Below, piece by piece: positions 4,714 through 62,084 of a stretch of DNA of 64,000 nt. Every line of letters begins with the position of its first letter. The stretch's first letter is position 1. The notes under the pieces are model-generated. The model was not told where the DNA came from and made no database searches. It saw only the letters and a program-made list of their open reading frames with translations. The DNA lies in assembly GCF_011045215.1 (NCBI RefSeq), contig NZ_CP049201.1. One strand, 5' to 3'. A program made the translations under genes and the position numbers. The stretch is from Escherichia coli (GTDB lineage Bacteria; Pseudomonadota; Gammaproteobacteria; Enterobacterales; Enterobacteriaceae).

Positions 4714-5279
4714 TATGTATTCCCTTGTGATTATAATCTTCATGAATATATCAATAAGTGCCGTTATCCAAAAAAAAAGCACATTTGGATACTATTCTAT
4801 GAAGTTCATTTTATTTTAAAGATTACATGTAACAAATGTATTTAAAAGATTTCAAAATGCTTCTAATCTATTTAATATAATTCAGAATTATGAATTCTAA
4901 ATATAAACATTCATGAAAATTATAAATGTATATCAATATATTATGAGTTGAATGGAAAGATAGGGAGTATCAATGATTGTTGCGCCAAACGGCAGGCGTG
5001 ATCACGCGCACATTAATGAAGGTATAAAAAAAGCCGGCATCATGCCGGCCCAAAAAATATAAACAAGACGATAAAAGGCTAATAACGGGGTTATCATGAC
5101 ACAGAAATCAAAAAAGGTATAATTGTATTCAGTGCTAATATATTGTTTGGGTGAATTAATAAAACTATTACCAAGGATATAAATAAATCTTTATTGCTGT
5201 TTTTCCAGTAATTATTGCCGTTGCGCAAAATTTATCTATTTGTTCAAAAAATGATTGAGTCTCGACTGGCTCATCCAAT

Positions 5280-10393: not shown

Positions 10394-10576
10394 ATGAGCT
10401 TTATGGTTAGCGAGGAAGTTACGGTTAAAGAGGGCGGCCCGCGGATGATTGTCACTGGATACTCCAGCGGTATGGTTGAGTGTCGTTGGTATGACGGTTA
10501 CGGGGTCAAGCGGGAAGCTTTTCATGAAACCGAGCTTGTTCCGGGGGAGGGGAGTCGTTCTGCGGAAGAAGTTTGA
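10394..10576 (+). CDS. yodC: Small protein YodC
   Basis: 60 aa; GGAGG RBS upstream; palindromic hairpin downstream (10596-10628). Confidence 0.8.
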   Translation: MSFMVSEEVTVKEGGPRMIVTGYSSGMVECRWYDGYGVKREAFHETELVPGEGSRSAEEV

Positions 10577-10746
10577 AAGGGTATCATTAACACCAGGCCG
10601 GATCACATCCGGCCTGGTGTGCCAATGCCTGCAATGAATGATAGTCGCGTCTTATCATGCCACCATTATAAAATTATCGCTGTTTTGCGGTACGCTATCG
10701 CCAGGTTATGCCAGAATCATAAAAAAGCAGGTTGGGAGTCGTCAGG

Positions 10747-13261
<2,515 letters not shown>

Positions 13262-13440
13262 TTACCAGGATGATTCTCAAAACAGCACAAATAATCAAAG
13301 ATGATTTTTTCGGGAGCGATCCCGTTGACGCCAGAGCCACCAAGGGGTGACGCACGTCACATTTCTATTCATAAGTAGCGTTAATCATTCATATCGCGAA
13401 TATTTTCTTGTCAGCGAAAAAAATTGCGGATAAGGTGATG

Positions 13441-13527
13441 AACACATCAGATTTCCTGGTGTAACGAATTTTTTAAGTGCTTCTTGCTTAAGCAAGTTTC
13501 ATCCCGCCCCCCTCAGGGTCGGGATTT
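13441..13527 (+). ncRNA. dsrA: DsrA small regulatory RNA (Hfq-dependent; rpoS activator / hns repressor)
   Basis: Sequence AACACATCAGATTTCCTGGTGTAACGAATTTTTTAAGTGCTTCTTGCTTAAGCAAGTTTC... matches DsrA as I recall it; ends in GC-rich hairpin plus T-run; lies between yedP and yodD. Confidence 0.85.
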
Positions 13528-13540
13528 TTTTATTGTGCAT

Positions 13541-13771
13541 TCAACGATTCACTTCAGAGACGCTGAAGTCATGAATATCCAGTTCGAAGGCATCCGCCAA
13601 TTCACGCCATGTATGATATTCACGTCCATCGACGCTAACGTGTTCAGAATCGTTCTGGCTGCGATGAACTATTTCATTGATCGCCGCCAGCAGGGCATCG
13701 ACATCGACGCTGACCTCACGTTTTGCGGTATCGCTGTACTCTTTTGCGGTTTTCATCATCTTTCCTCGCAA
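13541..13771 (-). CDS. yodD: Stress-induced small protein YodD
   Basis: 76 aa ORF in conserved position; true start may be an internal Met. Confidence 0.75.
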   Translation of the reverse strand: MRGKMMKTAKEYSDTAKREVSVDVDALLAAINEIVHRSQNDSEHVSVDGREYHTWRELADAFELDIHDFSVSEVNR

Positions 13772-13828
13772 CCGTTACTCTGTTGTTGCCGCCAGTCGTT
13801 AAGTCCGCCTGGCATCTCTTAAGTATAG

Positions 13829-14107
<279 letters not shown>

Positions 14108-14150
14108 TCTTATTCAGCCTGACTGGTGGGAAACCACCAGTCAGAATGTG

Positions 14151-14774
14151 TTAGCGCATGTTGACAAAAATACCATTAGTCACATTATCCGTCAGTCGGA
14201 CGACATGGTAGATAACCTGTTTATTATGCGTTTTGATCTTACGTTTAATATTACCTTTATGCGATGAAACGGTCTTGGCTTTGATATTCATTTGGTCAGA
14301 GATTTGAATGGTTCCCTGACCTGCCATCCACATTCGCAACATACTCGATTCGGTTCGGCTCAATGATAACGTCGGCATATTTAAAAAAGAGGTTATCGTT
14401 GTCTCTTTTTTCAGAATATCGCCAAGGATATCGTCGAGAGATTCCGGTTTAATCGATTTAGAACTTATCAATAAATTTTTTCTGACCAATAGATATTCAT
14501 CAAAATGAACATTGGCAATTGCCATAAAAACGATAAATAACGTATTGGGATGTTGATTAATGATGTGCTTGATGTGCTGACTGTTAGAAGCATCATGGAT
14601 GAAACAGTCCTCATTAATAAACACCACTGAAGGGCGCTGTGAATCACAAGCTATGGCAAGGTCATCAACGGTTTCAATGTCGTTGATTTCTCTTTTTTTA
14701 ACCCCTCTACTCAACAGATACCCGGTTAAACCTAGTCGGGTGTAACTACATAAATCCATAATAATCGTTGACAT
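14151..14774 (-). CDS. rcsA: Capsule synthesis co-activator RcsA (LuxR-type HTH)
   Basis: 207 aa with C-terminal LuxR/FixJ HTH; AT-rich upstream region. Confidence 0.92.
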
Positions 14775-15063
14775 GGCATACCCTCACTCAATGCGTAACG
14801 ATAATTCCCCTTACCTGAATATTTCATCATGACTAAACGGAACAACATGGGTCACCTAATGCGCCACTCTCGCGATTTTTCAGGCGGACTTACTATCCCG
14901 TAAAGTGTTGTATAATTTGCCTGGAATTGTCTTAAAGTAAAGTAAATGTTGCGATATGTGAGTGAGCTTAAAACAAATATTTCGCCACAGGAGTACCCTG
15001 GAAGATGTTCGCAGGTATTATTTTTCGGATAATCCTTAGGATAACATGATAAACGTTACGGAA

Positions 15064-15849
15064 TTATATTAATGGCAATTCACTAATAATATCAGCCAGC
15101 AAATTAAAAATTTCACTGAATAAATGTTCGCAAAAAGGCGCAATTAACGGCATTAATGCCGCCATTAAAGAGATACCGACAGTCAGAGTTAATGGAAATC
15201 CAATAACAAAAATGGATAATTGCGGGGCCATACGATTCAGTAAACCTAATGCCAGATTCAGGGTCAGCAGCAGAGTAATGAGCGGTAACGCCAGCATCAG
15301 CCCGTTAAGGAAAATCAAACTCCCCGCTTTGGTGAGTGCCAGAAACGCATTGCTGTTCAACGGTTTGCCACCAATTGGCAGGGTGTGAAAGGTATCGACC
15401 AGCAGTGAAATCAACCATAAATGACCGTTAAATGTCAGGAACAGCAGTAACGCCAGCATATCCATGATACGCGCTAAAACGGGCATATTGAGATGGCTGG
15501 CTGGATCGACAAAAGTCGCAAATGACAGCCCCATTTGCAGACCGATAATTTCGCCAGCGGTTCGCACAGCGGCAAAGGCAAATTGCATGGTAAAACCAAG
15601 CGCAACGCCGATCAGGATCTGCTGCACGGCCAGCCACAGAGCAAAGAACGAAAAAACAGGAACATCGTTGGCAGGTAATGATGGGGCAATAGCGAACGTG
15701 ATCATCATTGCCAGACCCAGTTTTACCCGTTTCGGCACGCTGCGTTCGCTCAGAATTGGCGCGGTAGAAATGAGCGCCAGCACGCGCAGTAACGGCCAGA
15801 AGTAGAGGCTTAACCAGGAAAGCCATTGATCGCTTGTCACCTGCATCAT
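15064..15849 (-). CDS. fliR: Flagellar export apparatus protein FliR
   Basis: 261 aa polytopic membrane protein, last gene of fliL operon. Confidence 0.93.
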
Positions 15850-15857
15850 TGTACGGG

Positions 15858-16127
15858 CTACCCGATGATATACGGCAGGTTAGTGAACAAGGTGCGGACG
15901 TAATCCAGCAACAGATTGAGCATCCACGGTCCGGCAATAATAATGGCAATAAATACGGCGATGATTTTTGGTATAAACGACAGCGTCATTTCGTTGATCT
16001 GTGTGGCGGCCTGCAAAATACTGATGATAAGGCCCGTGACCAGCGCCACCAGCAACAGCGGGGCAGCTAGTGCCAGCGCGACTTTCATCGCTTCAGTCCC
16101 CATCATCATGACCGATTCAGGTGTCAT
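15858..16127 (-). CDS. fliQ: Flagellar export apparatus protein FliQ
   Basis: 89 aa, two TM segments. Confidence 0.93.
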
Positions 16128-16136
16128 TTTGCCTCT

Positions 16137-16874
16137 CTAGCTGTAAAAGCTCTGCGCCAGCGAACCGACCAGCAATTGCCAACCATCCACCAGTACAAAC
16201 AGCATCAGTTTAAAGGGCAGAGCAATGGTGGCGGGGGGGACCATCATCATCCCCAATGCCATCAACACGCTGGCAATCACCAGGTCGATAATCAAAAAAG
16301 GGATGAAAATCGTGAAGCCTATCTGAAATGCAGTTTTCAACTCGCTGGTCACGTAGGCCGGGAGCAAAATGCGCATCGGCACGGCTTCAGGTCCCTGCAA
16401 CGGGCCGGTATTCGCCAGTCTGGCAAACAACCCTAAATCCGCCTCACGGGTCTGACGCAGCATAAACTCACGCAGCGGCTGCGCCCCTTTTTCCAGCGCC
16501 TCCTGCATTGATATTTTCTCTTCGCTGAATGGCTGGTACGCATCGACATAAATTTTATCGATCACCGGCGACATAATAAAAAAGGTCAAAAACAGCGCCA
16601 GTCCCAGCAATACCTGGTTAGGTGGCGCGGAGGGCGTTCCCAGCGCGTTACGCAATAAACCAAAAACAATAATGATGCGGGTGAAACTGGTCATCATTAG
16701 TAAAATTGCCGGAATAAACGTCAACGAGGTGATGAACACCAGCGTCTGCACCGGGAGCGACCAGCTTTGTCCACCGCCAGGCAGCGGCTGGCTGGTGATA
16801 CCCGGCAGTTGCGCGAAGGCGAGGGGCGTAACCAGACAGAGAAGGACAGGTGCGACAGACAACAAACGACGCAT
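16137..16874 (-). CDS. fliP: Flagellar export apparatus protein FliP
   Basis: 245 aa with signal peptide and conserved FliP core. Confidence 0.93.
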
Positions 16875-39580: not shown

Positions 39581-39678
<98 letters not shown>

Positions 39679-49527: not shown

Positions 49528-49603
<76 letters not shown>

Positions 49604-49656
49604 GTTTAAAAGGCATCGGCGTCAGCGGATGTCTGGCTGAAAGGCCTGAAGAATTT

Positions 49657-49730
49657 GGCGCGTTAACAAAGCGGTTATGTAGCGGATTGCAAATCCGTCT
49701 AGTCCGGTTCGACTCCGGAACGCGCCTCCA
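49657..49730 (+). tRNA. cysT: tRNA-Cys (anticodon GCA)
   Basis: GGCGCGTTAACAAAGCGG...GATTGCAAATCC...CGCGCCTCCA. Confidence 0.92.
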
Positions 49731-49742
49731 CTTTCTTCCCGA

Positions 49743-49829
49743 GCCCGGATGGTGGAATCGGTAGACACAAGGGATTTAAAATCCCTCGGCGTTCGCGCTG
49801 TGCGGGTTCAAGTCCCGCTCCGGGTACCA
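49743..49829 (+). tRNA. leuZ: tRNA-Leu (anticodon TAA), long variable arm
   Basis: GCCCGGATGGTGGAATCGGTAGACACAAGGGATTTAAAATCCC...CCGGGTACCA. Confidence 0.92.
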
Positions 49830-61484: not shown

Positions 61485-62084
61485 TTATGCTTGTTTACTC
61501 CTTGATTCCACTGGGGAAGCAGGCCACTCAATATCCGGTGCTCTTGATGTATCAACACGGTTCAGCAGCACTCGATACTTCTTCCATGCCACCAGTAACG
61601 ATGTTTCTTCCTCTGTTGCAATATTCAAATCTACGGCATCTTGAAGTGGCGAAATATGCTCACTGGCTACCTGCATGAGGCTGTTTTTTGTTTCTTCCGC
61701 CTCCCGTATCCGGAACACTTTTTCTGCTTCTGCATCTTTCACCCACGTTGTGCCGTTCCACTTCTGAAACTCCCCTTCCGGGGATAACCAGGTGACATTT
61801 TCCGGTAATGGACCGAGTTCAGAAATAAATAACGCGCCCCCTGATGCCACGTCATAAACCGTTTTACCACGATGATCTTCAACGAGATGCCAGGACGTCT
61901 TATCACTGTTGAAAATAGCCACGAAGCCAGCTGGAATATCTGGCGGAGAAATATCAGTACTATTTGCAGGTAGACCTGTATGAGGTGGAATGTATGCATC
62001 ACCTTCACCAATAAATTCATTGGTTCCGACCAGCAGATTATAAATTTTTATGGTTCGTGGTTGTTCACTCATTCTGAATGCCAT
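61485..62084 (-). CDS. Tail fibre assembly protein (P2 gpG/Tfa-like)
   Basis: 199 aa; start overlaps stop of tail fibre gene. Confidence 0.85.

Follow-up and report, generated by a model that had tools for sequence, protein, structure and literature searches.

A rare natural allele of the small RNA gene dsrA in Escherichia coli with a predicted weaker terminator hairpin

DsrA is a core small RNA (sRNA) of E. coli and Shigella (PMC3318445). In a stretch of 64,000 nucleotides of E. coli DNA (contig NZ_CP049201.1 of assembly GCF_011045215.1), which we refer to as the window in the following, the dsrA gene carries an unusual base, a C at position 13507, within the stem of its terminator hairpin. 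An initial annotation, made from the sequence alone, proposed that this base weakens the terminator and could thereby change the formation of the DsrA 3' end, the stability of the RNA and its binding to Hfq, and, as a consequence, the regulation of RpoS and H-NS. The locus therefore raises two questions, namely whether a DsrA with such a hairpin would still terminate and function, and how the C came to stand at this position.

The RNA itself matches the Rfam family RF00014 at 13441–13527 on the plus strand, covering the full model (positions 1–85 of 85) with 97.7 bits (gathering score 60, E = 2e-17), in agreement with the initial annotation, which had found DsrA recognizable in full. In the cmscan alignment, one pair of the terminator stem is marked as non-standard. 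Aligned with dsrA of K-12 MG1655 (b1954), the complete window RNA shows a single difference, which is at 13507 (RNA position 67): the window has C, whereas K-12 has A, just as the initial annotation had stated, and the C breaks an A–U pair of the terminator stem. Everything else that we compared, i.e. the locus, the length of the RNA, its first two stem-loops, the promoter-proximal region and the T-tract, is common to K-12 and the window. A second difference between the two sequences is found upstream of dsrA, at 13396 (about −45; C in the window, G in K-12), and from 13397 to +1 they are again identical. This identical segment (13397–13440, +) comprises the putative promoter region. The dsrA promoter was not called by a simple sigma-70 scan; following the dsrA promoter literature, its putative −35 and −10 hexamers are TTGTCA at 13408–13413 and TAAGGT at 13431–13436, which are separated by a 17-nt spacer.

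The gene order around dsrA is the canonical one (dgcQ, yedP, dsrA, yodD, dsrB, rcsA), with the annotated neighbours in RM10042 and K-12 matching the open reading frames of the window, and the upstream neighbour yedP (12428–13243, −) confirms the locus. The dsrA of the window is an ordinary chromosomal gene at its usual place, with a rare natural allele. As a side observation, dsrA is annotated as an ncRNA in K-12 MG1655 only, and no such feature is present in the 24 other RefSeq annotations that we fetched or in the listed matches to the K-12 dsrA sequence, which renders dsrA variation invisible to annotation-based comparisons.

The minimum-free-energy fold of the window RNA recovers the three stem-loops SL1, SL2 and SL3. 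SL1 (13444–13462, +), which carries the rpoS-pairing region, and SL2 (13466–13499, +), which includes the hns-pairing region, have the same sequence as in K-12, and their folds are unaffected by the C allele. SL3 (13501–13525, +) is the Rho-independent terminator hairpin, in which the predicted folds pair the 5' arm ATCCCGCCC(C) with the 3' arm (G)GGTCGGGAT. It runs into a tract of seven T residues (13525–13531, +), unchanged from K-12, which gives rise to the poly(U) tail and thus to the Hfq proximal-face site. While the initial annotation had placed the variant base correctly, its coordinates for the opposite arm were off by one: GGGTCGGG occupies 13516–13523 instead of 13517–13524, and the opposing T is at 13519 instead of 13520. 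In the reference allele, this T (U in the RNA) is the partner of A13507; here, it is predicted to be either bulged or part of a C·U 1×1 internal loop.

The variant base lies outside every coding sequence. A location within yodD, the convergent downstream neighbour of dsrA, was ruled out, as the yodD coding sequence spans 13541–13756 on the minus strand and its stop codon lies 10 nt beyond the T-tract; given this convergent arrangement, any read-through of the dsrA terminator would be antisense to yodD. A contig of the Logan assembly of run SRR11014969 (L108 in the following) is 100% identical to the window from 10541 to 16756 (6,216 nt), the C included. This identity over 6.2 kb shows that the window stems from a real strain with the base unaltered, and rules out a planted or synthetic base change. 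Gene conversion from a second copy is likewise unsupported, as no other part of the window matches the hairpin even with three mismatches, and nearly all complete E. coli genomes have one dsrA place. The best matches to the window among the complete E. coli genomes in RefSeq are at most 99.5% identical over 23 kb (3000–26000) and at most 99.4% identical over 4 kb.

What the substitution does to the terminator can be gauged from predicted folds. The predicted energy of the hairpin changes from −19.1 kcal/mol for the A allele of K-12 to −14.4 kcal/mol for the C allele, a loss of approximately 4.7 kcal/mol or about a quarter, and in this respect the proposed weakening of the terminator is borne out. 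The A allele is predicted to form a perfect hairpin of 10 pairs with a 5-nt loop, whereas the C allele keeps 9 pairs, together with one bulge or mismatch. At the same time, the substitution lengthens the adjacent C-run from five to six residues (G-A-CCCCC to G-CCCCCC), so that the upper stem can slip by one register, whereby three G–C pairs are re-formed and U13519 is bulged. The slipped conformer (−14.4 kcal/mol) and the original register with its 1×1 C·U internal loop (−14.0 kcal/mol) are nearly equal in energy, and in the full-length C-allele RNA their predicted probabilities are ~0.65 and ~0.33, respectively. The initial annotation had held that an equally stable alternative terminator would speak against its concern; such an alternative does exist in the slipped register, but it is less stable than the A-allele hairpin. 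The base of the stem is predicted to be the same in both alleles, with pairing probabilities of 0.96–1.0 in the lower stem and unchanged values for the six lower SL3 pairs, and in the C allele, the four lower G–C pairs, which abut the U-tract, pair with a probability of ~1.

Other measures describe the same imperfect hairpin. A consensus terminator scan that allows no bulges did not call it in the C allele, which reflects its imperfection rather than a loss of structure. The terminator d-score, which is indicative only, is 35 for the C allele and 53 for the A allele, and thus positive for both. The predicted stability of the C hairpin at 25 °C, which is within the temperature range of DsrA action, equals that of the A hairpin at 42 °C (−17.6 kcal/mol each). 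On the minus strand, the same hairpin folds with about −17 (C) or −19 (A) kcal/mol; no U-tract follows it there, and we rejected it as a canonical terminator of yodD.

Compared to the terminators of other sRNAs, a hairpin of this strength is not out of the ordinary. Functional sRNA terminators need a T-run of at least seven residues and a hairpin of only ‘moderate strength’, over-stabilised hairpins even shorten the poly(U) tail and abolish sRNA function, and the terminator hairpin appears to have no direct role in Hfq binding (PMC5558911). In the window, seven T residues (13525–13531) directly follow the hairpin, which is GC-rich, abuts the U-tract and, at −14.4 kcal/mol, is predicted to be of at least moderate stability. 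SgrS and RyhB, like DsrA, have a moderately stable GC-rich hairpin with at least seven U residues after it and a U-rich stretch before it (PMC5558911, PMC4509938); their terminators, with hairpin energies of −11.3 (SgrS) and −10.7 kcal/mol (RyhB), are functional at a read-through of roughly 50% and 20%, respectively (PMC4509938). The reference DsrA hairpin is stronger than either, and the C allele shifts DsrA towards their range, not below it.

A similar picture emerges from the DsrA orthologs. An exact-pattern scan over one genome per species yielded 77 DsrA loci, all of them in Enterobacteriaceae. The predicted terminator energies of 75 species representatives have a median of −15.6 kcal/mol and extend from −9.4 to −21.1 kcal/mol, and 20% of these terminators are as weak as that of the window or weaker. 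The stem position that corresponds to 13507/13519 is occupied by G–C in 46, A–U in 17, A·C in 12 and A·G in one of 76 orthologs, and is therefore non-pairing in 13 of the 76. These 13 orthologs look like a persistent intermediate between A–U and G–C. Among the A·C orthologs are those of Escherichia whittamii, of several Citrobacter species, such as C. braakii and C. youngae, and of Salmonella enterica subsp. arizonae and diarizonae. As in the window, their SL3 is imperfect at this very position; the predicted energies of their hairpins lie between −9.4 and −14.3 kcal/mol, and both the CCCG/CGGG base and the T7 tract are intact. In these species, however, the change is found on the 3' arm (U to C) and is species-fixed, whereas in the window it is found on the 5' arm (A to C) and represents a rare within-species allele. 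In the compared sequences, the position is thus the soft spot of the stem, where non-pairing has become fixed in whole species. None of the 76 orthologs has a C on the 5' side or a C·U opposition at this position; the mismatch tolerated elsewhere is A·C, and C·U may behave differently.

Given these data, we consider it probable that the C allele is a near-neutral or slightly deleterious dsrA polymorphism, with a hairpin that is weaker yet working, and that it is repeatedly generated by slippage. In this reading, the A-to-C transversion at 13507 exchanges an A–U pair in the middle of SL3 for a C·U opposition, and the lengthened C-run allows the upper stem to shift by one base, so that the three G–C pairs can re-form with U13519 bulged. 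Termination and the 3' poly(U) end would then still form, with read-through being at most modestly raised, and any such rise would be expected to be smaller in the cold, where DsrA acts, than at 37–42 °C. The regulation of RpoS and H-NS would be essentially preserved, and the allele would most likely be re-created time and again by slippage at the G-A-CCCCC run, without ever becoming common.

The foremost alternative is an attenuated DsrA, which we regard as unlikely. Here, a large share of the transcripts would read into yodD in antisense direction and thus lack the 3'-terminal poly(U), Hfq binding would fail, the RNA would be unstable, and both the low-temperature induction of RpoS and the anti-H-NS activity would be reduced. 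Such an attenuation is consistent with the predicted loss of 4.7 kcal/mol, with the hairpin being missed by the no-bulge scan and with the rarity of the allele described below. It would also agree with the observation that 3'-extended read-through sRNAs do not bind Hfq (PMC4509938), and with DsrA mutants in which substitutions that destabilise the terminator stem caused read-through and were isolated as loss-of-function (Sledjeski and Gottesman 1995, as cited in PMC4509938 and PMC6582626). As far as these citing papers describe them, the mutants resemble the window allele in that a substitution lowers the stability of SL3; they came, however, from a laboratory selection for loss of function and showed marked read-through, whereas the natural C allele is predicted to keep 9 pairs. 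DsrA termination is, according to the same two papers, more efficient at low temperature (Sledjeski et al. 1996, cited therein).

Several features of the window allele render a loss of function unlikely: its lower stem and T7 tract are intact, a rescue register is available, and its predicted energy lies within the natural DsrA range and is stronger than that of the working SgrS and RyhB terminators (PMC4509938). Further points against an attenuated DsrA are the species-fixed non-pairing at the same position elsewhere and the predicted stability of the C hairpin at 25 °C, which matches that of the wild type at 42 °C. The functional concern voiced in the initial annotation thus persists in a milder form, in that the hairpin is predicted to be weaker and a mild effect is possible. 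Most likely, DsrA would terminate normally or with slightly more leakage, and the control of RpoS and H-NS would not be grossly altered.

We now turn to the origin of the allele. Of the 5,320 complete E. coli genomes in which this region is present, 33 (0.6%) have the exact 76-nt stretch 13472–13547 with the C, with all others differing from it by at least one base, and A is found at this site in K-12 and ~99% of E. coli. The initial annotation had named the presence of C in reference alleles as a reason to drop its concern; C is indeed present in other genomes, but in just this small fraction. The 91-nt K-12 dsrA sequence, including the T-tract, is found exactly in 4,972 of 5,338 genomes, so that dsrA hardly varies, and ~9% of the 366 genomes that deviate from this sequence do so through the C allele. 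In metagenomes, a scan with N at the variant site returned 112 contigs, all with A and none with C, which fits the rarity of the allele. The known carriers come from cattle, pig, goat, rat, mouse gut contents, opossum, humans, water and cheese, with no visible niche pattern among them. A literature search on natural dsrA variation returned no description of the C allele; the RNA is already known, and the allele is already contained in 33 public genomes.

To describe the backgrounds on which the C occurs, 6 kb around dsrA were aligned for 17 C-allele genomes, 8 A-allele genomes and the window (5,975 ungapped columns, 316 variable sites). A single clade of C carriers is rejected at the local level, as the 18 C-allele sequences represent at least nine local haplotypes that are 15–138 sites apart in these 6 kb. 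Some of them have close relatives with A: strain 9 (C) is three sites away from an O18:H1 strain (A), one of these being the SNP, and 15 sites separate strain 210205630 (C) from O104:H4 (A). No marker changes near the SNP accompany the C allele in the 6-kb alignment. Within tight groups, the C is consistent. A14 and NCTC9041, for instance, have a common rare haplotype, whose next relative is just 99.5% identical, and both have C, and the same holds true for the close pair H3 and TW10690. This consistency points to real inheritance and argues against a random assembly error. The RM10042-type haplotype comprises seven C genomes, but is frequently found with A as well (exact over 871 nt in at least 45 genomes), which means that the true number of C origins could be even higher.

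The A-to-C change thus recurs on unrelated backgrounds at the level of local haplotypes, and the C allele has probably arisen repeatedly, with repeated mutation being the simplest reading. Through the substitution, a base next to a C5 homopolymer run becomes a further C, which is the classic signature of slippage-mediated (‘dislocation’) substitution. This context suggests a run-extension slippage hotspot at G-A-CCCCC behind the recurrence, with selection being less likely, while an import of the C by very short recombination tracts is possible as an alternative to repeated mutation. The rarity of the allele (0.6%) despite its recurrence suggests weak purifying selection, and thus some cost.

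A parallel adaptation, in which A-to-C would have been selected repeatedly because slightly less DsrA output leads to less RpoS and thereby to an advantage in some niches, appears very unlikely to us. Recurrent attenuation of rpoS is well known in natural and laboratory E. coli and provides an analogy, and the occurrence of the identical change on at least nine unrelated local haplotypes, several of which have A-allele relatives that are nearly identical to them, would be in keeping with such selection. The allele, however, never reaches an appreciable frequency, be it in genomes (0.6%) or in metagenomic contigs (0 of 112), its carriers show no visible niche pattern, and the position of the base next to the C5 run offers a simple mutational explanation. 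For the broader notion that the DsrA terminator stem serves as a recurrent evolutionary dial on the RpoS general stress response, where the change would be retained because more read-through at higher temperature lowers the output of DsrA, we see an equally slim chance.

Least probable of all is that the C is an artefact of sequencing or assembly in an error-prone context, with GGGGG-T on the minus strand being read as GGGGG-G in an inverted repeat: G-run and inverted-repeat contexts such as the motif at 13507 are known for systematic Illumina errors, the C is scattered over unrelated haplotypes and the same haplotype is common with A, but the C is found in both A14 and NCTC9041, which share a rare haplotype and come from different submitters, likewise in H3 and TW10690, in the independent and 100% identical public contig L108, and in several carriers which we take to be NCTC and other long-read assemblies.

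With a weaker yet working hairpin, recurrently generated by slippage, as the preferred reading, the allele is of little importance as it stands, as DsrA is among the best-studied bacterial sRNAs and imperfect terminator stems are common in its orthologs. Its recurrence across backgrounds is its sole slightly unusual feature, and makes it a convenient natural test case for telling apart a slippage hotspot and selection that acts on the RpoS network. Should termination be measurably changed, the allele would provide a natural example of sRNA tuning through the terminator, in line with the attention that sRNA terminators now receive as regulated elements (PMC6582626, PMC9765468).

Further observations concern the neighbouring genes. 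Downstream of dsrA, yodD (13541–13756, −) has a 12-nt in-frame deletion at 13670/13671 (plus strand TCGCTTTCGCTA), which removes the residues SESE from INEI[SESE]VHR and leaves a protein of 71 residues; these 12 nt are present in all 25 compared E. coli genomes. The same 71-residue protein is recorded in 17 public contigs, of which we fetched six. Five of these are ~1–2% diverged from the window and carry the dsrA A allele, which indicates that the deletion in the yodD tandem repeat is itself recurrent.

Upstream, dgcQ (10747–12431, +), which encodes a diguanylate cyclase that regulates cellulose synthesis, is a pseudogene in the window: owing to the T at 11095, codon 116 is followed by a premature stop codon (11095–11097), and a 10-nt deletion (GTGCCGGATT) is found after 11281. 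The dgcQ of TUM12355 also has the T at 11095 and is annotated with an internal stop, whereas the 10-nt deletion is, among PSJ-22, 18AR0366, TUM12355 and L108, common to L108 only. dgcQ is annotated as broken in O104:H4 C227-11, 210205630 and Ceylon31, too, and no association between the dsrA C allele and the loss of dgcQ is visible in the set of 26 sequences. Derived changes are thus found in three adjacent stress- or biofilm-related genes, dgcQ, dsrA and yodD, within 3 kb (10747–13756).

The other Rfam matches in the window lie at 5026–5115 (−), 61543–61741 (−), 49528–49826 (+) and 39601–39642 (−). They comprise three tRNAs, IS009 (187.7 bits), rseX (97.8 bits), which compared to the consensus has small gaps before its terminator, and a borderline match to ES036/CssrF (38.1 versus 37.6 bits).
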